DNA of 64,000 bases from Deltaproteobacteria bacterium (GTDB lineage Bacteria > CG2-30-53-67), in the NCBI GenBank assembly GCA_013151235.1, contig JAADIO010000032.1, positions 2,166 through 66,165 on the forward strand. Direction: 5' to 3'. The notes below the pieces were generated by a model. The model saw only the letters and a program-made list of their open reading frames with translations. It was not told the DNA's origin and did no database searches. The number at the start of each line of letters is the position of its first letter. Positions within the stretch are counted from its first letter, which is position 1. Position numbers and translations under genes: made by a program. Positions 7,916-53,482 of the stretch are shown piece by piece.

Positions 7916-7977
7916 CTATCGACGATGGGAAAAATATTTTTCCTGCCGGACTTTTTTAAGCTTTCGGCAGGAGTGAA

Positions 7978-33468: not shown

Positions 33469-33484
33469 TGGCATCGATTATGCA
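33469..33484 (+). promoter_or_regulatory. Sigma-54 (-24/-12) promoter candidate upstream of the PEP-CTERM gene
   Basis: TGGCATcgattaTGCA, with GG and GC separated by the canonical 10 nt. It lies 73 nt upstream of the ATG at 33557. Confidence 0.6.
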
Positions 33485-34972: not shown

Positions 34973-35014
34973 ATTGGGAATTTTTTTTCCTATATTGGGA
35001 AAAAATTTTCCAAT
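34973..35014. promoter_or_regulatory. Candidate enhancer (UAS) for the downstream sigma-54 promoter
   Basis: ATTGGGAAttttttttcctatATTGGGAAAAAATTTTCCAAT. This is a direct repeat of ATTGGGAA plus a near-palindrome, 105-146 bp upstream of the -24 element at 35120. Confidence 0.35.
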
Positions 35015-35118
35015 TCACAGATCGAAAATATCCAGAATAGAGCATAATCCATCCATATACCAGTAAAAACAGTCCTAATTATCTGTTTTTTGAGGGTATA
35101 TCCAAGTAATTGTGATTA

Positions 35119-35134
35119 TGGCATCGTATTTGCT
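35119..35134 (+). promoter_or_regulatory. Sigma-54 (-24/-12) promoter
   Basis: TGGCATcgtatTTGCT is a near-consensus match to TGGCAC-N5-TTGCW. It lies 54 nt upstream of the ORF starting at 35188. Confidence 0.7.
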
Positions 35135-35187
35135 GTTATCGAGTATGGGAAGGGATGTTTCAGTGAGAAGAAAGGGGTGGTGTCGTC

Positions 35188-35634
35188 TTGAAGGAGCAAA
35201 CCGAGAACCGACAAACGAATCGAGATCGACGCCGGAAACCGACGCCGATTTTCAGTCGGCATACCTTTTTCGGTCGCAGGAAATTGAACCGTCGAAGCTC
35301 CGACAGACATTACAATTACTATGTTGATTTATACAGTGCCCGCCTTTTTCTCATCCTCCTTCTGATTGTCATCATGTCTCTCCTCGATGCCGGTTATACC
35401 TACCGGTATATCTCGATGGGCGGCAAGGAGCTGAACCCGGTCATGGACTATTTTCTGAGCCGGGGAGTTTTCTCCTTTTTTTCTTACAAGTTCGTGATGA
35501 CGGCTATCGGGGTTTTCGTCCTCTGTCTCCATAAGAACTTCCTCTTTGCCCGGAACATGATTTCCGTGATCCTGGTCAGTTATATCCTCCTCATGTTCTA
35601 CCATGTCTCCATTCTCTACGCTACGCTTCAATAA
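35188..35634 (+). CDS. Small membrane protein with Arg-rich N-terminus (DUF5658-like)
   Basis: 148 aa with a TTG start. The N-terminal NRQTNRDRRRKPTPIFSRHTFFGRRKLNRRSSDR is followed by 3-4 TM helices. Confidence 0.5.
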   Translation: MKEQTENRQTNRDRRRKPTPIFSRHTFFGRRKLNRRSSDRHYNYYVDLYSARLFLILLLIVIMSLLDAGYTYRYISMGGKELNPVMDYFLSRGVFSFFSYKFVMTAIGVFVLCLHKNFLFARNMISVILVSYILLMFYHVSILYATLQ

Positions 35635-41679: not shown

Positions 41680-44232
41680 GTGTTGCGGAAACTTGAAGTT
41701 TGGCGGGTCGCCCTGTATACTCGGATTATGGGGTTGACAATGCACCATCAGTCGGGCCGGCTTCTGGAGATCCTGGACAGTCTGAATATTCCGCTCCTTC
41801 TTCTGGATTCCTCCGGCAAAGTGAAGTCCCACAACGGTATGGTCGAGGAGATCTTCGGGTATTCCTCCGCCGATCTGATCGGTCTTCCCTCGAATAACCT
41901 GATTGCACGATTCATAGCGTCCGAAAGTCCGGTCGGCGTCTCCTCTTCGTCCCCCGATCCTTTCCATGCAGATCTTTCTTCCCCCCTGCAACGGGAGGTG
42001 ACCTGCCGGAGAAAAAACGGTGGGGAATTCCCCGCACAGGTGACTTTCATCCCCTGGGGGGACGGGACCTTCCGGTTGATGGCGGTTCAGGATGTCTCCG
42101 GTCAACGGCGTCTGGAACAGCGTGCCACCCAGCGGACCAAGGAACTGACTCTCTTTAATACCTTCGCAGAGATCTTAAGCCGCGGTGGAAAACCCCGCGC
42201 GCTCCTGCAGGAGACCGTCGATATGCTTCCCGGGATCTTGGGGATTAAGGCCGCGATGATTCACCTACAGGATCAAGAGACCGGGAATCTTGTCCCCGCG
42301 GCCCGGCAGGGATTTGACGCTTCCTTTCTGGCTTCGGTAGGGGAGGTGGAACCGGGACAGGGGTTGTTCGGGAAGGTCCTGACCTCCGGGCTGCCTCTCC
42401 TCGTGGAGAAGGCCTCCGAGGATCCCCGAACGCTCAATTTTGATCTGCATCAGAGCGGTCTTCAAAGCTTTGCCTCCGTACCGGTTTCTTCAAAAGGCGC
42501 CGTCCGGGGGGTCCTGACCGTGGCGAGCCGGCGGGTCTCCTCTTTTACCGCCATGGACATGCAACTTCTTGATGCCCTCGGGAGCCAGTTGGGGATCGCC
42601 ATTGAGAATGCGGAACTGATTGCCCAGCTCAAAGAGAAGATGAACCAGATCGCCCTGACCAATGAATTGAGCGGGACGATCAATTCCAGCCTGAGTATCG
42701 GCACGATCTTCCGGATGATGGTTTCGGAAATCCGGAAGTTGATTGAATACGACCGTGCCGGCCTCTTGCTCTACGATGAGAAGAAGGGGAACCTGTTGAT
42801 CTTCGCCCTCGATACGGGGCTGAAGACGGAGATGACCCGGGGGGTTAAGGCACCCATCGAGGGGACCTCGGCCGGTTGGGCCTTAAAGCATAACCGGCCA
42901 TGGATCAATCGGGACCTGCTCTCGGAGATGCTCTTCCCGCTAGACGGAAAGCTGCGCGACGAGGGGATTCGCTCGACTATCAGCATTCCTTTGACCCAGG
43001 AGAAGAGGCTCGGCGTATTCAACCTCGATAGTCGGGAGGCGGCAAAGTATTCGGAAACGGATCTGCAGATCCTTCTGCCGGTGGCGAAACAGATCTCCAT
43101 CGCGCTGGAGAATGCCCTCCTCTTCGAGGAGATCTCGAGGGAAAAGAAGGAGTGGGAGAAGACCTTTGATGCATTTACGGACATGGTTTGGATCGACGAT
43201 CATCGTCAGCGGATCCTTCGGGCGAATCAAGCCCTGCTCCAGGGGGCAGAGGTGACCATGGCGGGGCTTTCGGACCTCCATTGCGCGAATCTGCTCGACC
43301 GGCTCGGCGTCGGTCCTTCCTGTCTGTGCTGCGAGACCGTAACCACGCAGCGCCAGACCTTCCGGGAGGTTCATGGGCGAGAGGGAAAGATCTTCCATTT
43401 CTGGGCTTATCCTCTCCTCGACGATGAGGGACAGCTCTATGCCGTCCTTCACTATCTCAAGGATGTGACGGAACGCAAAAGGCTGGAACAGCAGCTTCTC
43501 CGGGCGGACAAGCTTGCTTCCCTGGTGACGCTGGTGGCGGGAATCGCTCATGAGATCAACAACCCGCTCGGGATTATCGCCGGTTATGCCGAGGCCCTCC
43601 TTGATCGTGCCGGAGATCCTGCTCTTCGGGGGATGGAAGCCTTTGAGGATTTTCCCGAGTATCTGGATACCATCCACAAGGAGATCTTTCGCTGCAAGGA
43701 GACCCTGGGAAGTCTCCTGGAGTTTGCCCGGCCCCACGGGAGAAAGTCCCGGGAACTCGATATCAATGAACTGCTCAAAGAAGTGATCCTCCTGGTGAAT
43801 CACAAGGCCAAACGTCTTCACTGCCGGATTGAGCATCAGCTCAACCGGGAACTGCCGAAGATCTGTGCCGAACCGGGGAGTCTGCGACAACTCTTCATGA
43901 ATATCATCATTAATTCCCTCTACCATACGCCGGAAGGGGGAAAGATCGAGATTACGACGGAACTCAACCGGAACGATCCGAAAGAGATGATCCAGGTGGC
44001 GATTCGTGACACCGGTCCGGGGATCCGACACGAGGTGATCGACAAGATTTTTGATCCCTTCTTTACGACCAAACCGGTCGGGGAGGGGACCGGATTGGGG
44101 CTTTCCATCTGTCACAAAATTGCAGAGGAACACAACGGGGTGATCGATGTCGAAAGTGAGGTCGGCCGCGGCACGACCTTCTTTATCAAGCTGCCTGCGA
44201 AAGGGAACCATGGCCCGGATACTTGTCGTTGA
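41680..44232 (+). CDS. Cytoplasmic multi-sensor histidine kinase (PAS-GAF-GAF-PAS-HisKA-HATPase)
   Basis: 850 aa with no TM segments. H-box [12 protein letters not shown]-box [11 protein letters not shown] and G-boxes [15 protein letters not shown]. Two GAF-like regions. One PAS domain carries an H-C-x13-C-x-C-C cluster. Confidence 0.85.
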
Positions 44233-45574
44233 CGACGAAGAACCCTTTCGTCGCCTGCTGAAAAAAGAACTGACCCGGAAAGGGTTTTCCGTTGAGGTGG
44301 CCCCGGAAGGGGAAACGGCGCTGAAACTTTTGAAGGAGAGTGTCTTTGATCTGCTTCTCCTCGATGTTCTGATGCCGGGACTGGACGGAATTTCCGTGAT
44401 GAAACGGCTGCGTAAGGACCCGACGGCGCCGCCGGTGATCGTCTTGACGGGGAAGGCCACGATTGAAACGGCGGTCGAGGCGATGAAGAACGGCGCCTAT
44501 GACTATCTGACGAAACCCTACAAGCTTGATGAGTTGGAAATCGTCATCAACCGAGCCTGTGAATTCGGGAATTTGAAACACAAAAGCCGGGTACTTGAGC
44601 AGGAGCTGGTTCGAAAAGAATCCAAGGTTGAATTTATCGGGGAAAGCCCGCAGTTCCAGGCGATTTTGACGCTGATTCGCAAGATCGCCCCCACCGACTC
44701 CACGGTTCTTATCCAGGGGGAAAGCGGCACCGGCAAGGAGTTGGTGGCGAATGCCATCTGGCATCACAGCCGTCGGAATAATCTGCCTCTTATCGCCCTG
44801 AACTGTGCCACCCTTTCCGAAACCCTCATGGAATCGGAACTTTTCGGACATGAAAAAGGCGCCTTTACCACGGCTTACCGGACCAAGTACGGTATCGTAG
44901 AGGTTGCCGATAAGGGGACCCTCTTCCTGGATGAGGTGGCCGAGATGCCGATGGGACTCCAGGCCAAGCTCCTCCGCTTTCTTGATCGGGGGGAGTTCCG
45001 TCGTGTGGGCGGAAACAAGACCTTGCAGGTCGATGTCCGGATGATTGCTGCGACCAACAAGAATCTGGAGGAACGGGTTCGGCGGAAAACCTTTCGGGAA
45101 GATCTTTTCTATCGCCTCCATGTGATTAATATCAAGATTCCGCCGCTTCGCGAACGTCCGGAGGATATCCGGGACATTGCCCTTCATTTTGCCAAACAAT
45201 ATTCCCGCAAAATAGGAAAGTCGGTCTGGAAGATTGACGCCGATGCCCTGGGGATTCTCCGGCGTTATGCCTGGCCGGGAAATGTTCGGGAGCTGGAAAA
45301 TGAAATCGAGCGGAGTGTGATCCTCTGTGAAGGCGAGGCGATCGGTGTCCACGACCTTTCGATCGCCGATCGGGTTGCAACGCCCACCTCCGGGACGCAG
45401 CCGATGCTGGAGGAGATCGAGAAGGAGTGTATCCTCAGGGTCCTCCGGGAGACCGGCGGCAACCAGACCCGGGCCAGCAAAATCCTCGGCATCAACCGTA
45501 AAACCCTCTACCTAAAACTTCGCAAATACGGTGCACTTACATCGCAGGATAGCGAGATTCCCCCTGAGGTATAG
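44210..45574 (+). CDS. Sigma-54-dependent response regulator (NtrC family enhancer-binding protein)
   Basis: REC domain (ILVVDDEE...LLLDVLMPGLDG...KP). AAA+ domain with GESGTGKE Walker A and a GAFTTA (GAFTGA-type) loop. C-terminal Fis-type HTH (TRASKILGINRKTLYLKLRKYG). Start set at MARILVVDD, overlapping the kinase stop by 23 nt. Confidence 0.9.
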   Translation: MARILVVDDEEPFRRLLKKELTRKGFSVEVAPEGETALKLLKESVFDLLLLDVLMPGLDGISVMKRLRKDPTAPPVIVLTGKATIETAVEAMKNGAYDYLTKPYKLDELEIVINRACEFGNLKHKSRVLEQELVRKESKVEFIGESPQFQAILTLIRKIAPTDSTVLIQGESGTGKELVANAIWHHSRRNNLPLIALNCATLSETLMESELFGHEKGAFTTAYRTKYGIVEVADKGTLFLDEVAEMPMGLQAKLLRFLDRGEFRRVGGNKTLQVDVRMIAATNKNLEERVRRKTFREDLFYRLHVINIKIPPLRERPEDIRDIALHFAKQYSRKIGKSVWKIDADALGILRRYAWPGNVRELENEIERSVILCEGEAIGVHDLSIADRVATPTSGTQPMLEEIEKECILRVLRETGGNQTRASKILGINRKTLYLKLRKYGALTSQDSEIPPEV

Positions 45575-45600
45575 TACCCCGCATGGCGGGGTAATTTTCC
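45575..45600 (+). terminator. Rho-independent terminator candidate after the NtrC-type gene
   Basis: TACCCCGC-atg-GCGGGGTA (8-bp GC-rich stem, 3-nt loop), followed by ATTTTCC. Confidence 0.5.
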
Positions 45601-45678
45601 CCGCCTTAGATCTTCTCCTCTTTGGGAAATTCAACATTAACTTTCTTAAATCAACAGGTTAAATGTTTGATGCTGTTA

Positions 45679-45694
45679 TGGCATGGGATTTGCT
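45679..45694 (+). promoter_or_regulatory. Sigma-54 (-24/-12) promoter of the methyltransferase island
   Basis: TGGCATgggatTTGCT. The extended string TTATGGCATnnnATTTGCTGTT is shared with the promoter at 35119. Confidence 0.65.
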
Positions 45695-45707
45695 GTTCTA
45701 TTACGGT

Positions 45708-46070
45708 ATGAACGATATCCTTTTATGCTCATCGGATCCGATCTTCATAAAGAATCTCTACGGGATTCTCCGGGAGGACGGTTACCGTGTCGATATTGCC
45801 GGCCATGCGTCTATGGCCGTCCGGATGGTTTTTGAAAAGAGTTTTGCAGCGGTGATCCTCGATTCCGATGCTGTCGGTATGTCTTCGGGGGAGGCTGCAC
45901 GTATCATTTTGAGAGTCATCTCGGGGATCCCTGTAATTCTTGCAGGGGAAAGTCTGTTACCCGAGGGGGCGTTTTCGATCAGCAAACCTCTGGATCTGGA
46001 GGAGGTCCTGGAGGTTCTTCGAACCGTTCGTTTAATTCATTTTCCGGAAAGGAGTGTGAGCGGCCTATGA
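45708..46070 (+). CDS. Stand-alone receiver (REC)-like protein
   Basis: ~120 aa. CheY-like pattern ILLCSSD...AVILDSD...PVILAG...ISKP, including a candidate phospho-acceptor Asp and a K-P pair. Start set at MNDILL because the sigma-54 promoter lies inside the longer track ORF. Confidence 0.45.
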   Translation: MNDILLCSSDPIFIKNLYGILREDGYRVDIAGHASMAVRMVFEKSFAAVILDSDAVGMSSGEAARIILRVISGIPVILAGESLLPEGAFSISKPLDLEEVLEVLRTVRLIHFPERSVSGL

Positions 46071-47098
46071 CACCACGAGAGATTATTTTGCAGGCCTTTG
46101 AAGGGGGGAAGCCCGAGCGGGTGCCGGTTTCTCTCTTCGGTGCCGGCATGTGGAGCATCAAGAGTTTTGAAAGCAGTTTCGAGGAGTTGTCGACCGATGC
46201 AGCGAAGATGTCGGATATGTTGGTGACCCTGTCGGACAAACTGTTGTGTGATATTGTCTATGCCGGCTCCGGGTACAACAACTTTCACGCCGCTGCGTTC
46301 GGCGGGGAGATCAAGTTTCGTTCCATGGGAGCGCCGGATCTGAAGGAACATCTCGTTTCCTCCGTGGAGGACATTGAAAAATTTGATCTATCGGCGCTCG
46401 ACAATGAAGCGACCCTCAATATCGTCAAGGATGCCCTGCATCGTACACGGGAACAGATCGGTGACAAATATGTGGTGAGCATGACGGCCTGGGGACCCTT
46501 TACCCTCGGGGCACGTTTCGTCGGGGAAGAGACGATGATGAAGGCGACCTTCAAGAATCCCGACCTGGTCCACCGGGTCACTGATTTTGCAACGGACCTT
46601 CTGATCCATCTTTATGAACCCCTGGTTGATGACGGGACGCTGGAAGTGATCAGTCTGGCCGATCCGACGGCCTCGGGGGACCTGATTTCCCGCAAGCAGT
46701 TTGAAAAGTTTGCCGTTCCCTACCTGAAAAAGTTTACCGACTGGGCCAGATCGAAGAAGGCGTATACCCTCCTGCACATTTGCGGGAATACGACGGACCG
46801 CCTGGATGTGATGCCCGGGACCGGGGCGAGCTGTATCAGCCTGGATCACAAAACCGATATCGGGAAGGCCTATGAGGCACTCCACGGAAGGATCTGTTTT
46901 GCCGGCAATGTGGATCCTGTCGGTGTCATGCTTCAGGGCTCGGTCGACGATGTGGAGAGGGCCTGCCGGGAGGTGATCGAAAGGGCCGGCACGGAGGGGG
47001 GGTTCGTTCTCATGCCGGGATGCGATATTCCGCCGACCGTCCCTTATGAAAATATTCGGAAATTCATCCAGGTCGCGCGGGAGTGGAAATTGACATAA
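46067..47098 (+). CDS. MtaA/CmuA-type (URO-D fold) methylcobamide methyltransferase, paralogue 1
   Basis: 343 aa. URO-D family pattern with LHICGNT (H-x-C) and MPGCDIPP (C) zinc ligands, as in methylcobamide:CoM methyltransferases. ATGA overlap with the REC gene. Confidence 0.8.
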   Translation: MTPREIILQAFEGGKPERVPVSLFGAGMWSIKSFESSFEELSTDAAKMSDMLVTLSDKLLCDIVYAGSGYNNFHAAAFGGEIKFRSMGAPDLKEHLVSSVEDIEKFDLSALDNEATLNIVKDALHRTREQIGDKYVVSMTAWGPFTLGARFVGEETMMKATFKNPDLVHRVTDFATDLLIHLYEPLVDDGTLEVISLADPTASGDLISRKQFEKFAVPYLKKFTDWARSKKAYTLLHICGNTTDRLDVMPGTGASCISLDHKTDIGKAYEALHGRICFAGNVDPVGVMLQGSVDDVERACREVIERAGTEGGFVLMPGCDIPPTVPYENIRKFIQVAREWKLT

Positions 47099-47251
47099 GG
47101 CGAAGAGGGGGTAGTAAGTCCGTGTTGTTCAGGTCCCATTGACCTTGTGAGAGAGGGGGTTGTGATGGGTACATTCTGGGAAAATCTCAAAAATATGTTT
47201 GTGCGGACTGTTCCTCCGGGAGCAGCCGGGCAATCGCAGAAAGGAGCTGCC

Positions 47252-47698
47252 ATGGCTGACGAAAAGAAGATGACGCTGGAAGAAGTAAATCAGTATATGC
47301 AGGAAAAGTGCGGGTTCGTGCCGAGGATGTTCAAGATTATCAATACCGTGACGCCGGAGCCCGGCCGAACCTTTGCCGATTTCTACGCGAGCATTTTCGG
47401 GGAGGGCGCACTTTCCAAGAGCGTCAAGGAATTGATGTTCATGTCCGGTGGTGTCGCCTACTGTTCGCCTCGCTGCATCATTCATGTCGTACCGGCGATC
47501 AATGCCGGTGCAACGTCGGAACAGGTCTTCGAGGCGGCGTCCGTCGGGATGATCCTGGCCGGTTTTGTCCCGAACGGTCCGGGAATTCCCTATGCCTTTG
47601 AATATGCCTTGAAGTGCATTGACATCGACACGAAGTTCCGGAAGGGCGAGGAGTGGGAATACCTGCCGCCCCCGAAATTTGATCACGGGATTTACTGA
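47252..47698 (+). CDS. Carboxymuconolactone decarboxylase / AhpD-like family protein
   Basis: ~148 aa. KELMFMSGGVAYCSPRCIIHV resembles the AhpD-core Cys/His segment, though the Cys spacing is atypical. The ATG at 47252 lies 5 nt after AAGGAG. Confidence 0.5.
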   Translation: MADEKKMTLEEVNQYMQEKCGFVPRMFKIINTVTPEPGRTFADFYASIFGEGALSKSVKELMFMSGGVAYCSPRCIIHVVPAINAGATSEQVFEAASVGMILAGFVPNGPGIPYAFEYALKCIDIDTKFRKGEEWEYLPPPKFDHGIY

Positions 47699-47775
47699 GC
47701 GCTTCAGCCGCGGGAGGGGGGAATCCCCCCTCTTTTGCCCCCCTCCTGCGGATTTTACCCATTTTTAATTTAAGG

Positions 47776-48747
47776 ATGATACATATGTTCACCTTTGAAA
47801 CGGAACAAAAGGTTTGCAAGATCGGCGGATTAAAGGTTGGAGGCCGACCGGCGGAAAATCCCCCTCTCCTGATTGCCTCCATGTTTCATAACAAGGACCG
47901 AATCCTGCAGGATCGTAAAGGGAATTTCGACCGCGTCCGGGCGACAGAACTGATCCGGAAGCAGGAAGAGCTGACCGAAGCCACCGGCATTCCCGGTATG
48001 GTGGCCATGATGGCCAATTCCGCCGGGGAAGCAAAGATCTATATCGATTTCTTTGTGGAAACCACCGACATGCCCTTCGCCATCGATATGTGGGTTGCCG
48101 AGAAACGGATGGCCGCGACGGAATATGTGGCGAAGTTAGGTCTGCAGGACCGGTTTGTCTATAACAGTATTACCCCCTGGGACAAGGACATTCCGGGGCA
48201 GGTGCAGCGGGTCAAAGAGCTCGGCATCAAACACGTATTTGTCCAGGCCTTTGATGATGCCGATCAGTCTCCGAAAGGACGGCTGACCTCATTGGAAAAA
48301 TTGCTTGATCAGGGAGCGGGTGATTTCGAGTCGGTCCTTGTCGATTCCTCGGTGATGAATCTTCCCGCTGCCTCTTTCTCCATGCTGGCAAACCGGATGA
48401 TCAAAGAGAAGTTAGGGCTCCCCTGCGGAAGCGCCTATTCCAATGGCACCCACATGTGGAAAGAGGCCAAGGAGATCTGGGGGCTCGACGGTTTCAAGGC
48501 GATGGATGCTGTGGCCCAGGGGATGTCGACGGCCCTCTGGTCGGATTTTAATTTTTACGGTCCCATCGTGACGGCGCCCCGGATCTTCCCCGGTGTGGCC
48601 ACGGCAAACATCCTGCTTTCGACCCTGGTCTTTGATGAAACCGGGGAGGTCTCGGAAAATGAAGACCTGCCGATCCGGAAGCACTTTTCGGAATTTCTTG
48701 AGAAGATGATCGCCGGTGGTGCAAGAAAAAAGGCGCAGGCCCGATAA
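47776..48747 (+). CDS. MtrH-like pterin-binding methyltransferase (methylcorrinoid:tetrahydrofolate/H4MPT type)
   Basis: 323 aa. CKIGGLKVGGRPAENPPLLIASMFH...AIDMW...YNSITPW resembles the tetrahydromethanopterin S-methyltransferase subunit H family. Confidence 0.75.
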   Translation: MIHMFTFETEQKVCKIGGLKVGGRPAENPPLLIASMFHNKDRILQDRKGNFDRVRATELIRKQEELTEATGIPGMVAMMANSAGEAKIYIDFFVETTDMPFAIDMWVAEKRMAATEYVAKLGLQDRFVYNSITPWDKDIPGQVQRVKELGIKHVFVQAFDDADQSPKGRLTSLEKLLDQGAGDFESVLVDSSVMNLPAASFSMLANRMIKEKLGLPCGSAYSNGTHMWKEAKEIWGLDGFKAMDAVAQGMSTALWSDFNFYGPIVTAPRIFPGVATANILLSTLVFDETGEVSENEDLPIRKHFSEFLEKMIAGGARKKAQAR

Positions 48748-48780
48748 TCGATAACCCTAATATCAGAAGGAGAAAACGTT

Positions 48781-49803
48781 TTGACGGAAACCATGACATC
48801 AAGAGAACGGGTACTGAGACTGTTTCGGGGGGAACCGACGGATCGTCCGGCCTGTTTCAGCGGGATGGGTAATGCGACAACGGAAGGGCTGAACCAGCTC
48901 GGCTACAAGTTTGCCCAGGTTCATCTCGATGCGAAACAGATGGCGGAGACGGCCATGACGACGCCCCGGCTTTTCGGGTTTGACGCCTGCGTCCTTCCGT
49001 TTGACCTCTGTGTCGAAGCGGAAGCGATGGGCGCAAGGATCAATACCTATTCGAACTCGGACGACCTGCTCTATCCCACGATCAAAGAGAAGGTAATCCA
49101 TGGCGAAGAGGAGATGGAGATCAACCTCCCCTCCGACCTGGTCACGCGCGGGCGGATCCCCCTCATGAAGGAGGCGATCGGGATCGCCAGGGAAACCATC
49201 GGAGAGACCGTGGCGATCGGTTCTTACCTGCTCGGACCGTTTACGCTCGCCGGTCAGATCATGGAACTGAACGATCTGCTGAAACTTTCTTTCAAGAAAC
49301 CGGACAAGGTCGGGAAACTTCTGGCCGATCTGACCTGCGTGATCGTGGCGGTTGCGAAGGAGTATGAAGCGGCCGGTGTTGACTACCTGACGGTACGGGA
49401 GATGGGTGCAACCTCCGACGTGTTGAGCCCCAGGGTTTTCAAGAGCCTGATACTGCCCCATCTCAAGAATATTTTCGAACAGATCAGTGTTCCCAGTGTG
49501 CTGCATATCTGCGGCAAGACGAACAACATCGTCGTTCCGATGGTGGAAACGGGTGCGACGGCCATCAGTGTTGACCAGAAGAATGATGTGGTCGACAGCC
49601 GGAAAAAGCTCGGATCCGATGCCCTGATTTTCGGGAACTACGACCCCTATAACGTGCTTGTTTCGGGTACGCCGGAACTGGTCAAAGAGGCGATGCAAAA
49701 GTGTTTGGAAGACGGCGTCAGTGCCGTCTGGCCCGGCTGTGATATCTGGCCCACGGTGCCGGCGGAGAATTTTAAGGCCATGATGGAAACCATGAATGAA
49801 TAG
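48781..49803 (+). CDS. MtaA/CmuA-type (URO-D fold) methylcobamide methyltransferase, paralogue 2
   Basis: 340 aa. RERVLRLFRGEPTDRPA N-terminus, with VLHICGKT (H-x-C) and WPGCDIWP (C) zinc ligands. TTG start after AAGGAGAA, or the ATG at 48793. Confidence 0.8.
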   Translation: MTETMTSRERVLRLFRGEPTDRPACFSGMGNATTEGLNQLGYKFAQVHLDAKQMAETAMTTPRLFGFDACVLPFDLCVEAEAMGARINTYSNSDDLLYPTIKEKVIHGEEEMEINLPSDLVTRGRIPLMKEAIGIARETIGETVAIGSYLLGPFTLAGQIMELNDLLKLSFKKPDKVGKLLADLTCVIVAVAKEYEAAGVDYLTVREMGATSDVLSPRVFKSLILPHLKNIFEQISVPSVLHICGKTNNIVVPMVETGATAISVDQKNDVVDSRKKLGSDALIFGNYDPYNVLVSGTPELVKEAMQKCLEDGVSAVWPGCDIWPTVPAENFKAMMETMNE

Positions 49804-49817
49804 TCAGGAGGCATGGA

Positions 49818-50513
49818 ATGGCAACTGAAGAGAGAACCCGGGAAATCCTGGAGAAAATGGAGAAAGCCGTGATTGAGTATGACGAAGATGCGGCCAAGGA
49901 GGGTGCCCAGGCGGCCCTCGATGAAGGGGTCAATCCCAATGATGCCATCTTCGACGGTCTGGTCAGCGGGATGCAGGAAGTCGGCAAGCTCTTTGAGGCC
50001 GAAGAGTATTTCGTCCCGGAGCTGCTCATGTGCGCCGATGCCCTTTATGCCGGTCTCGATATCTTAAAACCCCATGTGAAACAGCTCGACCTGGGGGTGA
50101 AAGGCTCGGTGGTGATCGGTACCGTGGAGGGAGATGTTCACGATATCGGGAAGAACATCGTGAAGATGATGTTCGATGTCGCCGGGTTTGAGGTCCATGA
50201 CCTGGGACGGGATGTGCCGCTGGATCAGTTTGTTGAGGAACAGATCAAAACCGATTCCGAACTGGTCTGCCTCTCCGCCATGATGACGACGACCATGATG
50301 GGGATGCAGAAGGTCATCGAGGACCTGAAGAAGAAGAATCCCGATATCAAGATCATGATCGGCGGTGCTCCCGTTTCCGGTGATATCGCCGAGAAATGGG
50401 GAGCGGACGGCTATGCCGATGACGCGACCAATGCCCTCGCAGATGCCATCAACATGGTCAGCTCTCTGAAAAAGATGAAGGAAGAAGCGGAAGCCAGGGA
50501 AAAACGGAAGTGA
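49818..50513 (+). CDS. Corrinoid (B12-binding) protein, MtaC/MtbC/MttC-like
   Basis: 231 aa. N-terminal helical cap domain, then a Rossmann B12 domain with GTVEGDVHDIGKN (DxHxxG), SAMMTTT (SxL-type) and IGGAPV (GG). Confidence 0.9.
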   Translation: MATEERTREILEKMEKAVIEYDEDAAKEGAQAALDEGVNPNDAIFDGLVSGMQEVGKLFEAEEYFVPELLMCADALYAGLDILKPHVKQLDLGVKGSVVIGTVEGDVHDIGKNIVKMMFDVAGFEVHDLGRDVPLDQFVEEQIKTDSELVCLSAMMTTTMMGMQKVIEDLKKKNPDIKIMIGGAPVSGDIAEKWGADGYADDATNALADAINMVSSLKKMKEEAEAREKRK

Positions 50514-51175
50514 GCAGTGCATTCTTGAAAAAGATGCTCCTCGGTTCCGGGGCGACCGTGGTGGGTGTGGCGGAACTGGATGCGTATCTTGACGGAGAGA
50601 TCCGTCATCTCAACCGAGGGGTTTCCATCGCGGTGGACCGGACGCTTCGGGAAGATACCCTGAAACATCTGGGCCGGCTGCAGAAAAAAGTGGTCCGCTA
50701 TCTGAAAGGGAAGGGATTCCGTACCCTCAGTATCCCCCCTGATTCGGACCGCATCCGGAATAAGTTTGTTGCCGAACTTTATTCCCTTTTGACCCACAAG
50801 ATGGCAGCCACCTGCGCGGGGATCGGCTGGATCGGGCGGAATGGGTTACTGATCAGTCCCCATTTCGGGCCGCGGCTTTCCCTGGCGACGGTCCTGACCG
50901 ATGCGCCCCTGAAGAGCGATATTCCCTATGAACAGAGCCGTTGCGGCAATTGCCGGCTTTGTGTTGACTACTGCCCGTCGAAGGCGATCACGGGCAAAAC
51001 CTGGTCCCGGCGGGACCCTTACAGCGGCCTGGTCAAGCCCCACCGGTGTCGTGTACACAAAGAGGGGGCCCGGGGAGTGACGGATCGGCCCAATTGCGGT
51101 CTCTGCCTGCAGATCTGCCCCTACGGGCGGGCGAAAGGGAGGACCAAACCGAAAGATGTTATGGAGATTGTATAA
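50510..51175 (+). CDS. QueG/RdhA-like 2x[4Fe-4S] ferredoxin-domain protein
   Basis: 221 aa. GWIGRNGLLISPHFGPRLSLATVLTDAPL is an epoxyqueuosine-reductase-like core. Two cluster motifs are present, CGNCRLCVDYCP and CGLCLQICP. 4-nt overlap with the corrinoid protein gene. Confidence 0.6.
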   Translation: MSSAFLKKMLLGSGATVVGVAELDAYLDGEIRHLNRGVSIAVDRTLREDTLKHLGRLQKKVVRYLKGKGFRTLSIPPDSDRIRNKFVAELYSLLTHKMAATCAGIGWIGRNGLLISPHFGPRLSLATVLTDAPLKSDIPYEQSRCGNCRLCVDYCPSKAITGKTWSRRDPYSGLVKPHRCRVHKEGARGVTDRPNCGLCLQICPYGRAKGRTKPKDVMEIV

Positions 51176-51177
51176 AG

Positions 51178-53154
51178 ATGAGCAGCAAATATAAAGTGAA
51201 TTTTCAGCCCTCGGGAAGTCGGGGGGAAGTGGATGCAGGGAAAACCCTCCTTGATGCGGCCCAGCGTTTAGGGGTTGATCTGGAATCAGTCTGTGGCGGC
51301 AAGGGGACCTGCGGGAAATGCAAGGTCCGTGTTGAGGAAGGATATTTTGAAAAAGATGCCATGGAATCAAGAATGTCCCATCTGTCTCCTCTGACGGACG
51401 TGGAACGCAAATTCATCAAACCGGAAGACGGACCCCGAATGCGTTTGGCCTGTGCCGCCGAGGTGCGGGGGGATGTGAAACTTTTCGTGCCGGAAAAGTC
51501 CCGTGCCGGGAAACAGATCGTTCGCAAGGCCGCAAAAGATATTACGATCGCCCTCGACCCCGCCGTGAAAAAATATTGTATCCGGCTGGATGCCCCGACC
51601 CTGCACGATCTTTCCAAGGGGGATCTTGAACGGATTCTGGGGGCGCTGAAAATGGAGTACAACCTGGAAAACCTTGCCATAGACTATCTGGTCCTCCAGA
51701 AGCTCCAGGATATTCTTCGGGCCGGGAACTGGGAGGTGACGGTTTCGGTCTGGAAAGGCAAAGAGATCATCAAGGTGGAGCCGGATTTTGTGGACGTCTC
51801 CTACGGTCTGGCCGTGGATGTCGGGACGACGACGGTGGCAGCCTATCTGTGTGATCTGAACACGGGCAAGGTGCTTAACACCGAATCGATGATGAATCCC
51901 CAGGTCCCGTACGGCGAAGATGTCATGTCGAGGATTACTTACGCCATGACCCATGACGACGGTCTTGCGATCATGCAGAAGGCAATCATCGAGGGCTTAA
52001 ACGATCTGATTGAGAAGATTACCGCCGACATCCGTTCCAACGGAACGCCCGGCGGTACCTCCATCGTCGATATGACGGTGGTTTTTAATACCGCCATGCA
52101 TCACATCTTCCTGGGATTCAACCCGGTCTACATCGGACGGTCTCCCTTTATTCCTGCCGTGCAGGATTGTGTTGATCTCAAGGCACGGGATCTGGGACTT
52201 CAAATCAATGAAGCTTCCTACATTCATGTCCTTCCCATTGAGGCCGGTTTTGTCGGCGCCGACAATGTGGGGGTTCTCATCGCCGAAGAGCCGTACAATT
52301 CCGAGGACAATGTCCTGATTATCGACATCGGGACGAACGGTGAACTCCTCCTCGGGAACAAGCATGCGGTCTGTTCCACTTCCTGCGCTACGGGACCGGC
52401 CTTTGAAGGGGCCCAGATCAAGTTCGGAATGCGAGCCGCCCCGGGAGCGATTGAAAAGGTCCGGATCGATCCGGAGACGAAAGAGCCACAGTACAAGGTG
52501 ATCGGCAAGGCCGACTGGCATACCCATATCAAGGATGTCAATGCCAAGGGGATCTGCGGTTCCGCCATCATCGACGTGATTGCCGAGATGTTCAAGGCGG
52601 GAGTCATCGACAAGTCCGGGAAATTCGTCAAGGATCTTGACATACCCCGCATCCGGAAGGATGCCGACGGCAAACCGGAGTACGTCCTGGCCTGGGCGGA
52701 TGAAACCTCCATCGGGAGCGACATCACCGTGACGCAGGGGGATGTCCGGGCGTTGCAGCTCGCCAAGGGGGCACTCTACGCCGGGGCGAAACTGATGATG
52801 CAGAAGATGGGGATCGAAAAACTCGACCGGGTGGTTCTGGCGGGGGCCTTCGGGAGTCATATCAATACGGAGGCCTCGATGACCCTCGGGATGTTCCCCG
52901 ATTGTGCCATCGAAAAGGTCTATGCCGTGGGGAATGCCGCCGGCGACGGGGCGATCATGGCCCTGCTGAACCTGGGGAAACGACGTGAGGCCGGCGAAAA
53001 GGCCCGGTGGGTCCGGTTCCTGGAGATTGCCGTGGAGCCGGAATTTGAAAAGGAATTCATGAAGGCGATGCATATTCCGCACATGAAGGATCCTTTTCCC
53101 AATCTCAAGTCGTTGCTGGAGAAGGACCATTTGCCGGTGACGATCAAGGGGTGA
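51178..53154 (+). CDS. Reductive activator of corrinoid proteins (RACo / ASKHA-fold, N-terminal [2Fe-2S] ferredoxin)
   Basis: 658 aa from MSSKYKVNF. Plant-type ferredoxin motif CGGKGTCGKCKV...C, then a large ASKHA ATPase region (GLAVDVGTTTVAAYL, IIDIGTNGE). Start moved from 51046 to the ATG at 51178, 2 nt after the upstream stop. Confidence 0.85.
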   Translation: MSSKYKVNFQPSGSRGEVDAGKTLLDAAQRLGVDLESVCGGKGTCGKCKVRVEEGYFEKDAMESRMSHLSPLTDVERKFIKPEDGPRMRLACAAEVRGDVKLFVPEKSRAGKQIVRKAAKDITIALDPAVKKYCIRLDAPTLHDLSKGDLERILGALKMEYNLENLAIDYLVLQKLQDILRAGNWEVTVSVWKGKEIIKVEPDFVDVSYGLAVDVGTTTVAAYLCDLNTGKVLNTESMMNPQVPYGEDVMSRITYAMTHDDGLAIMQKAIIEGLNDLIEKITADIRSNGTPGGTSIVDMTVVFNTAMHHIFLGFNPVYIGRSPFIPAVQDCVDLKARDLGLQINEASYIHVLPIEAGFVGADNVGVLIAEEPYNSEDNVLIIDIGTNGELLLGNKHAVCSTSCATGPAFEGAQIKFGMRAAPGAIEKVRIDPETKEPQYKVIGKADWHTHIKDVNAKGICGSAIIDVIAEMFKAGVIDKSGKFVKDLDIPRIRKDADGKPEYVLAWADETSIGSDITVTQGDVRALQLAKGALYAGAKLMMQKMGIEKLDRVVLAGAFGSHINTEASMTLGMFPDCAIEKVYAVGNAAGDGAIMALLNLGKRREAGEKARWVRFLEIAVEPEFEKEFMKAMHIPHMKDPFPNLKSLLEKDHLPVTIKG

Positions 53155-53164
53155 GACGTCGAAA

Positions 53165-53482
53165 ATGACCCGTGTGAAAATCGACCCGGGCGTCTGTGGT
53201 TTTCCCGCTCTCGTGACGGTCGAAAAAAAGGACAGGCAGCACTTTCGGGTAACGATCGAGTCCAATTGTGAAATGGTACGGAAATTGGGAGAGGAAATTG
53301 CATCCCTGACGATGCAGGATGCCTTCATCCGGTTTTCCGATAACCGGGTCTATGAGAAGGCCTCAACCTGTCTGAAACACACGGCCTGTCCGGTCCCGTC
53401 GGGCATCCTGAAGGCCCTGGAGGTTGAGGCCGGTCTGGCGGTGCCGCGGAACGTAACGGTGGAATTTCTTGCCGGGGAGTGA
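53165..53482 (+). CDS. Small conserved-Cys hypothetical protein
   Basis: 105 aa with four Cys (C11, C35, C69, C75). Translationally coupled to the next gene by a 4-nt overlap. Confidence 0.4.
   Translation: MTRVKIDPGVCGFPALVTVEKKDRQHFRVTIESNCEMVRKLGEEIASLTMQDAFIRFSDNRVYEKASTCLKHTACPVPSGILKALEVEAGLAVPRNVTVEFLAGE

Follow-up and report, generated by a model that had tools for sequence, protein, structure and literature searches.

The stretch of DNA analyzed here, 64,000 nt of contig JAADIO010000032.1 (positions 2,166 to 66,165 of the forward strand) from the Deltaproteobacteria bacterium assembly GCA_013151235.1 and referred to below as the window, carries a promoter of the sigma-54 type close to the start codon of a gene for a small receiver-like (REC-like) protein. 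This gene is the first of an operon whose enzymes belong to corrinoid-dependent methyl transfer (46067-53482, + strand; assigned with Pfam and NCBIfam), and it is preceded by genes for a sensor histidine kinase and an NtrC-type activator. The features around the promoter are the following:

41680-44232, + strand: sensor histidine kinase (PAS-GAF-GAF-PAS-HisKA-HATPase; Pfam), exact start uncertain, presumed partner of the activator
44210-45574, + strand: NtrC-type sigma-54 activator (REC, AAA+, Fis-type helix-turn-helix (HTH)/HTH_8; Pfam, NCBIfam)
45574-45598, + strand: G+C-rich dyad or hairpin, GTACCCCGC-ATG-GCGGGGTAATTTT, centred at about -121 from the predicted transcription start
45622-45628, + strand: TTGGGAA string at about -80, not conserved in the intergenic alignment of close relatives (A1), probably a chance occurrence
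45649-45661, + strand: site resembling that of integration host factor (IHF), AATCAACAGGTTA, which fits the IHF consensus WATCAANNNNTTR without mismatch and has its centre at about -50
45676-45697, + strand: sigma-54-type promoter, with -24 element TGGCAT at 45679-45684 (GG at 45680-45681) and -12 element TTGCT at 45690-45694 (GC at 45692-45693)
45705, + strand: predicted transcription start (G, 12 nt after the C of GC, by standard -12 numbering), giving the predicted leader 5′-GGU-AUG
45708-46070, + strand: REC-like pseudo-receiver gene (120 aa), first of the operon, its stop codon overlapping the ATG of the next gene (ATGA)

A sigma-54 core in front of the pseudo-receiver gene

Direct reading of the window places the 22-mer TTATGGCATgggATTTGCTGTT (identical to TTATGGCATGGGATTTGCTGTT) at 45676-45697. 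Within it, TGGCATGGGATTTGCT (45679-45694) is a perfect match of the TGGCAC-N5-TTGCW type, in which exactly 10 nt separate GG from GC. The pattern TGGCAYNNNNNTTGCW (TGGCAY-N5-TTGCW) is matched perfectly at two places in the window and no more, here and at 35119, where the 22-mer reads TTATGGCATcgtATTTGCTGTT (identical to TTATGGCATCGTATTTGCTGTT; 35116-35137). The first-pass annotation had counted 19 of 22 positions as shared by the two sites, and so did we. When three positions of the 22-mer were left free, only the sites at 35116 and 45676 matched, even with three mismatches allowed, and none was found in 100 shuffles.

Conservation of the site was followed in two sets of relatives of the REC-like protein. 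The close set comprises six relatives with 83-100% protein identity (L001, L002, and L004-L007), the distant set 15 loci with 37-44% identity (L020-L034), which came from a scan of metagenome contigs using the protein alignment alone. In the close set, TGGCAYGG-N3-TTGCT and the ATG are invariant and the bases flanking the promoter vary (alignment A1). In the distant set, TGGCAY-N5-WTGCW directly precedes the ATG at 15 of 15 loci. All 21 related loci (37-100% protein identity) thus carry the core 14-17 nt before the same ATG, the gap between the C of the -12 element and the ATG being 14 nt in the window. What lies upstream differs: L025 has an activator gene on the same strand, L020 a divergent gene for a CobW GTPase followed by a GAF-type sigma-54 activator. 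Conservation of the promoter is thus independent of the activator architecture. Judged from this invariance among close orthologues and distant relatives, the element at 45679-45694 is a genuine sigma-54 promoter with an ordinary core sequence. Both the presence of such a promoter before the methyltransferase island and its distance of 14 nt from the ATG (-12 C at 45693, ATG at 45708), as proposed in the first-pass annotation, are borne out.

ATG codons are present at 45663 and 45708. The public annotation (GXP58_06115; window 45678-46070), like that of three relatives, begins a 130-aa protein at an ATG or GTG overlapping the -24 element; the "MAW" with which these annotated proteins start is ATG GCA TGG, overlapping TGGCAT. 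If a longer open reading frame (ORF) were real, beginning at ATG 45663 (135 aa) or ATG 45678 (130 aa), TGGCA...TTGC would be coding sequence and no promoter, and for four of the six loci in the close set, gene callers did settle on 130 aa. Against such an extension stands the fact that a single nucleotide inserted downstream of the -12 element and before the ATG breaks its frame in L005 and L006, and that L007, which has CTGGCA where the other close loci have ATGGCA or GTGGCA, offers no ATG or GTG to start from. Distant loci have no conserved extension either, and in L025, L026, L033, and L034 the ORF offers no start upstream of the ATG. Conservation within the extension is confined to the bases of the sigma-54 core and shows no codon pattern. 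Moreover, the receiver fold is complete without anything before residue 1: the family profile and the Thermotoga receiver RR468 align from their first residues on (E = 4e-5), and the β1 strand starts at residue 4 of the AlphaFold model. A protein-coding extension is very improbable on this evidence, and comparison of the loci identifies ATG 45708 as the true start, yielding 120 aa and not the annotated 130 aa. This agrees with the earlier argument that the promoter, lying inside the longer ORF from 45663, forces the gene to start at 45708.

The first-pass annotation had also offered an alternative, namely, that the REC-like ORF is not translated at all and that the region is a 360-nt 5′ untranslated region of the methyltransferase genes. 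Such a reading would account for the absence of a Shine-Dalgarno (SD) sequence and for a Pfam receiver score below threshold (PF00072, Response_reg; 20.8 bits vs a cut-off of 30.2), but it does not survive the comparison of orthologues. Counted from the ATG on in the six close orthologues, variable columns are distributed 29/16/79 over codon positions 1/2/3 without a single indel, which indicates that the ORF is under purifying selection as a protein. The frame is intact in the 15 distant loci as well, down to 37% protein identity. The AlphaFold2 model (predicted local distance difference test score 69) has a receiver fold, all of its top 15 Foldseek matches in the PDB being receiver domains (template modelling scores of 0.61-0.71), and an Rfam scan of 30000-56000 returned no RNA family, hence no riboswitch or small RNA by which the conservation might be explained. 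That the ORF is merely a leader is therefore extremely improbable; its substitution pattern is that of a translated gene.

The encoded protein is best described as a pseudo-receiver. Besides the Pfam score, that against NF045717 of NCBIfam is below its cut-off (19.5 vs 160). In the alignment with RR468, VVDDEP is matched by LCSSDP; the Mg2+-binding acidic pair is thus replaced by two serines, and this Ser-Ser (LLCSS[DN]P) is invariant in all relatives. D52 aligns with the acceptor aspartate of RR468, and neither D52 nor K93 varies within the close set; by its position in the model only, K93 would be the conserved receiver lysine. Because the acidic pair is replaced and the family scores are below the cut-offs, canonical phosphorylation is improbable, and the pseudo-receiver is probably not phosphorylated in this way. 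Possibly, its function is feedback on the kinase/activator pair.

The control region and the 5′ end of the transcript

By promoter geometry, transcription is predicted to start near 45705 and to leave a leader of ∼3 nt. Among 20 loci anchored at the ATG, the start codon is always AUG, position -3 is always a purine (G in 17), position -1 always a pyrimidine, and position -4 a pyrimidine in 18. A pyrimidine-purine pair is the usual start-site dinucleotide; since it is conserved at -4/-3, the start seems to be held constantly 3 nt before the AUG. On leaderless mRNAs, non-AUG starts are inefficient. No SD-like purine-rich stretch (of the GGAGG/AAGG type) was present in the 12 nt before the ATG at any locus, so that the claim of the first-pass annotation, essentially no leader and no SD sequence before 45708, extends to the relatives. 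In the window, ATG 45708 is preceded by TTCTATTACGGT. The neighbouring genes carry SD sites of the AAGGAGG/AAAGGGG type, and the genes behind the other two sigma-54 promoters of the window also have an SD sequence and leaders of ∼43 and ∼63 nt. No significant structure was obtained when the 5′ end predicted for the mRNA was folded (z = -0.78).

The gene at 44210-45574 encodes the only activator in the window (tblastn yielded only the self match), its Sigma54_activat domain being recognized with E = 4e-69. Contigs of close relatives share the order kinase, activator, REC-like gene, methyltransferases, and synteny of the kinase is kept in L001, L002, L004, and L005. Upstream of the promoter, two non-coding elements are conserved among the close orthologues. 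The first is a block GAGGTATAGTACCCCGC-N3-GYGGGGTAATTTT spanning 45564-45598, which consists of the hairpin and its 5′ flank. Flank (GAGGTATAGTA) and arms are invariant except for one G-U compatible change in an arm; the loop varies. This dyad is unique in the window, and the corresponding RNA folds with -21.2 kcal/mol (z = -2.96). Its tail contains only four T, and it was not flagged by the terminator scan. As it is also located ∼80 nt upstream of the -24 element, the notion that a terminator immediately precedes the promoter had to be given up. The classical NtrC site is 17 bp long with a 3-nt spacer, a geometry equal to that of the dyad at 45574-45598; a hairpin fits equally well, because the single arm change is G-U compatible. 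The dyad may weakly terminate transcription of the activator gene, may be bound by the activator, or may do both.

The second element is the IHF-like site at 45649-45661. It is the only perfect match to the consensus in the window, where ∼2 would be expected by chance, and is kept with no or one mismatch in all close orthologues, which makes it a candidate DNA-bending site between enhancer and promoter. The TTGGGAA string, to which the first-pass annotation had drawn attention, is indeed found at 45622-45628. It is not conserved in the orthologues, and the 7-mer is at chance level in the window, with five copies on the + strand and four on the - strand. Across the distant REC-like loci, counting of 7-mers did not uncover a convincing common upstream motif for an activator site; TGAGGTA recurs upstream, at inconsistent positions.

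At 454 aa, the activator ORF of the window exceeds the orthologous ones (447 aa) by seven codons, as seen when 45520-45574 is set against 9800-9870 of L001. Relative to them, a deletion in the window has removed their activator stop codon together with ∼60 nt of spacer, and the stop codon now used, TAG at 45572-45574, forms part of the conserved block GAGGTATAGTA beside the hairpin.

The explanation that is considered likely is that 45679-45694 functions as the sigma-54 promoter of the corrinoid-methyltransferase operon, under the control of the adjacent two-component system, and that it gives rise to a transcript with a ∼3-nt leader and a first cistron devoid of an SD sequence. The PAS/GAF histidine kinase and the NtrC-type activator (44210-45574) would most likely switch on this promoter; the binding site of the activator would be located within the short intergenic stretch, the dyad at 45574-45598 being the candidate, and the IHF-like site at 45649-45661 would help the DNA to loop. 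Transcription would then begin ∼3 nt before ATG 45708, and the 120-aa pseudo-receiver would be translated from the 5′-proximal AUG without an SD sequence, as on leaderless mRNAs. The methyltransferase gene at 46067 would be translationally coupled via the ATGA overlap, in addition to having an SD sequence of its own. Which activator acts and where it binds, the role of IHF, the mode of translation, and the function of the pseudo-receiver are steps that we infer. A farther-reaching idea is that promoter and AUG form a conserved, coupled module: only transcripts initiated by activated sigma-54 polymerase would have the AUG 3 nt from their 5′ end and could be translated in leaderless fashion, and the pseudo-receiver would directly report the activity of the activator and feed back on the kinase/activator pair. 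The REC-like genes would then represent the first family of sigma-54-dependent leaderless mRNAs to be described, kept in lineages with different activator types. This idea is tentative and, at present, rather unlikely.

Several observations weigh against the preferred explanation. The transcription start was placed by promoter geometry, and as the distance from GC to ATG varies between 14 and 17 nt, a fixed leader of 3 nt requires initiation at C+12 to C+15, the upper end of which is unusual. A 3-nt leader is also not strictly leaderless, and extra 5′ nucleotides reportedly reduce leaderless translation in E. coli. The loop with which the activator would contact sigma-54 (∼44855-44872) reads GAFTTA and not canonical GAFTGA. 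GAFTTA is kept in all close orthologues (L001, L002, and L004-L007) and was not encountered in the searchable literature; the activator of L025 has GAFTSA, and the GAF-type activator of L020 has GAFTGA. The assignments of the binding site and of the IHF site were made from conservation and position, and the distant locus L025 has no IHF-like site at the corresponding position. Finally, neither an RpoN box nor an rpoN gene was found in the 64-kb window.

Some of the same observations could be accommodated differently. The sigma-54 transcript might mainly serve the downstream enzymes, the REC-like ORF being translated poorly or not at all from it, and the REC-like protein might chiefly be made by read-through from the activator gene and SD-independent internal initiation. 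A hairpin with a tail of four T that escapes the terminator scan makes read-through plausible in the lineage of the window; for leaderless initiation in E. coli, a leader of 3 nt is not the optimum; and the next gene has a strong SD sequence of its own (GGAAAGGAG). Transcripts reading through from the activator gene lack an SD sequence too, though, and most distant loci have no co-directional gene upstream from which such transcripts could come (a divergent CobW gene is found instead), which leaves the sigma-54 promoter as the only evident source of mRNA. The ORF, its ATG, and the purine at -3 are nonetheless conserved there. Read-through as the chief source of the protein is therefore unlikely.

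The promoter at 35119

The second perfect match to the sigma-54 pattern belongs to a different gene, and the features there are as follows:

34975-35011, + strand: TGGGAATTTTTTTTCC and TGGGAAAAAATTTTCC, two dyads of the form TGGGAA-N4-TTTTCC in tandem at a spacing of 21 bp, located at about -162 and -141
35116-35137, + strand: second sigma-54-type promoter, TGGCATCGTATTTGCT (35119-35134), predicted start at about 35145
35188-35634, + strand: DUF5658 membrane-protein gene with TTG start (Pfam DUF5658)

The promoter at 35119 is genuine as well, its core being conserved in L009-L011 (alignment A2). The DUF5658 gene has a ∼43-nt leader with a conserved AAAGGGG site. From the near-identity of the two promoters, the first-pass annotation had concluded that the membrane protein and the methyltransferase island are co-regulated. 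A sister species speaks directly to this conclusion: L009, a DUF5658 locus, and L001, a methyltransferase locus, overlap with 99.3% identity over 3.7 kb and are therefore from one species. Its two promoters have 15 of 22 positions in common, the sigma-54 core alone, so that the additional flank matches between the window's promoters (TTA, A, and GTT) are not under conservation. The tandem TGGGAA-N4-TTTTCC dyads, in turn, are nearly invariant in L009-L011 and are the only perfect matches in the window, with none near 45679; they are a candidate enhancer of the promoter at 35119 only.

It may still be argued that the same activator drives both promoters and that the DUF5658 protein and the methyltransferase operon form one regulon. 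The 19 of 22 positions shared in this genome are more than the sigma-54 core, the window contains a single activator gene, a TTGGGAA string is found upstream of both promoters, and the base after TTGCT is the same in both (G in the window, A in L009/L001). The excess over the core is lost in the sister species, however, and the conserved dyads at about -140 and -160 of the promoter at 35119 are absent near 45679. The TTGGGAA string at 45622 is not conserved and is at a different distance (about -80), and the methyltransferase promoter has conserved upstream blocks of its own, which are different. Above all, the promoter core binds sigma-54 and not the activator, so its identity is silent on the regulator. 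A common regulon is distinctly unlikely, and co-regulation is not supported; as far as can be judged from the sequences, the likeness of the two promoters is due to the shared sigma-54 consensus plus a few chance matches in the flanks, not to a shared regulator. A search with the 22-mer in a genome collection without the genome of the window gave eight matches, all in unrelated taxa, at an estimated chance expectation of ∼4. In the 120-210 nt upstream of distant DUF5658 homologues (L035-L038), no sigma-54 motif was seen, which is uninformative regarding the regulon of the promoter at 35119.

These homologues (35-39% identity) are encoded inside glycosyltransferase-rich exopolysaccharide clusters of G+C-rich organisms, and the DUF5658 gene of the window is near genes for PEP-CTERM and PilZ proteins. 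This setting suggests that the DUF5658 protein has to do with surface polysaccharide or biofilm and not with the methyltransferase operon. In the NCBI annotation, the gene is 32 codons too short (116 vs 148 aa from the TTG start). An ATG at 35145, the predicted start of transcription from 35119, was considered as a second leaderless ORF and rejected, being absent in L009-L011 and probably due to chance; it opens an ORF of 60 codons (35145-35327) that overlaps the DUF5658 start in another frame. A third, imperfect sigma-54-like site, TGGCATCGATTATGCA (33469-33484), with one mismatch in the -12 element, is located ∼75 nt before a gene for a PEP-CTERM protein (33557), which has a strong SD sequence. 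Furthermore, TGGGAAAAATATTTTTCC (7926-7943) is a near-perfect 18-bp palindrome that resembles the half-sites of the enhancer at 35119, with a 6-nt spacer.

The methyltransferase operon and related systems

Downstream of the pseudo-receiver gene, the operon encodes the following proteins (where one coordinate is given, it is the start of the gene):

46067, + strand: MtaA/CmuA-type methyltransferase
47147-47698, + strand: AhpD/CMD-like protein
47776, + strand: MtrH-type methyltransferase
48781, + strand: second MtaA/CmuA-type enzyme
49818, + strand: corrinoid protein
50510, + strand: 4Fe-4S protein
51046, + strand: RACo-type reductive activase
53165, + strand: DUF6951 protein

Together, these genes specify corrinoid-dependent methyl transfer, and the make-up of the cluster is analogous to that of the mec and Mta/Mto cassettes. 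The gene order REC-like, URO-D, CMD-like, MtrH is kept in the distant loci. An AhpD/CMD-like protein of ∼172 aa is always encoded between the first MtaA-type and the MtrH-type gene, in the window as well as in L020-L034; in the distant loci it ends in PQPKFDHGVF, and it has weak NCBIfam similarity to peroxidase-like proteins of arsenosugar/arsenite methyltransferase systems. In five distant loci (L020, L021, L029, L032, and L033), a gene for a CobW-family GTPase of the metal chaperone type is divergent from the REC-like operon (minus strand), which hints at a link with cofactor or metal insertion.

With regard to its promoter, the locus resembles E. coli glnAp2, Klebsiella nifH, and Pseudomonas Pu. 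The core is again of the form TGGCAC-N5-TTGCW, GG and GC being separated by 10 nt, and its neighbours are the genes of a histidine kinase and of an AAA+ activator equipped with a Fis-type HTH. At ∼120 nt upstream of the predicted start there is a dyad, a candidate for the activator site, and a match to the IHF consensus is located between dyad and promoter. Whereas the leaders of these classical examples are ∼40-60 nt long and contain an SD sequence, the start codon is here 15 nt after the C of the -12 element, which leaves room for neither; the GAFTTA contact loop is a further difference. In having the AUG near the predicted 5′ end and no SD sequence, the transcript would instead resemble leaderless mRNAs such as those of lambda cI and Tn1721 tetR or those of Actinobacteria, Deinococcus, Caulobacter, and rhizobia. 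Leaderless mRNAs have been tied to sigma-70-type promoters, often with an extended -10 element (TGnTA) (PMC4842269; PMC3616915), in contrast to which the promoter is here of the sigma-54 type and the predicted leader 3 nt long, not 0. A report of a sigma-54- or RpoN-dependent leaderless mRNA was not found among the matches from the searchable literature that were checked, mostly by title and abstract.

The pseudo-receiver, like CheY, Spo0F, DivK, and T. maritima RR468, its best sequence match, is predicted to adopt a (βα)5 fold, has ∼120 aa, and has kept Asp52 and Lys93. It differs from all of them in the Ser-Ser that takes the place of the acidic pair and in its sub-threshold Pfam and NCBIfam scores. 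As for the enzymes, MtaA/CmuA- and MtrH-type proteins, a corrinoid protein, and a RACo-type activase are clustered with a kinase and a regulator, as is the case in the mec dichloromethane cassette and in the MtaABC/Mto systems; in the mec cassette, corrinoid methyltransferase genes have adjacent two-component regulators (10.1101/2021.08.30.458270). Unlike in mec, Mta, and Mto, the regulator is here a sigma-54 activator, AhpD/CMD-like and DUF6951 proteins are additionally present, and a pseudo-receiver gene opens the operon. The mec cassette and the mlp gene cluster are analogous to the operon of the window but not demonstrably the same.

Sigma-54 promoters as such are textbook elements. This one stands out because ∼20 loci keep the start codon at 14-17 nt from the -12 element, a layout that spans protein identities down to 37% and two activator architectures. 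It leads to the specific prediction of a sigma-54 transcript with a ∼3-nt leader that is translated without an SD sequence. For the REC-like family, the public start-codon call is corrected from 130 to 120 aa, and an uncharacterized corrinoid methyltransferase operon with two-component/sigma-54 control is brought to notice in uncultured sediment and vent bacteria. If the prediction is true, a sigma-54 class would be added to leaderless expression, so far described for sigma-70-type promoters, and the way in which a small pseudo-receiver is tied to the output of the activator would be shown.

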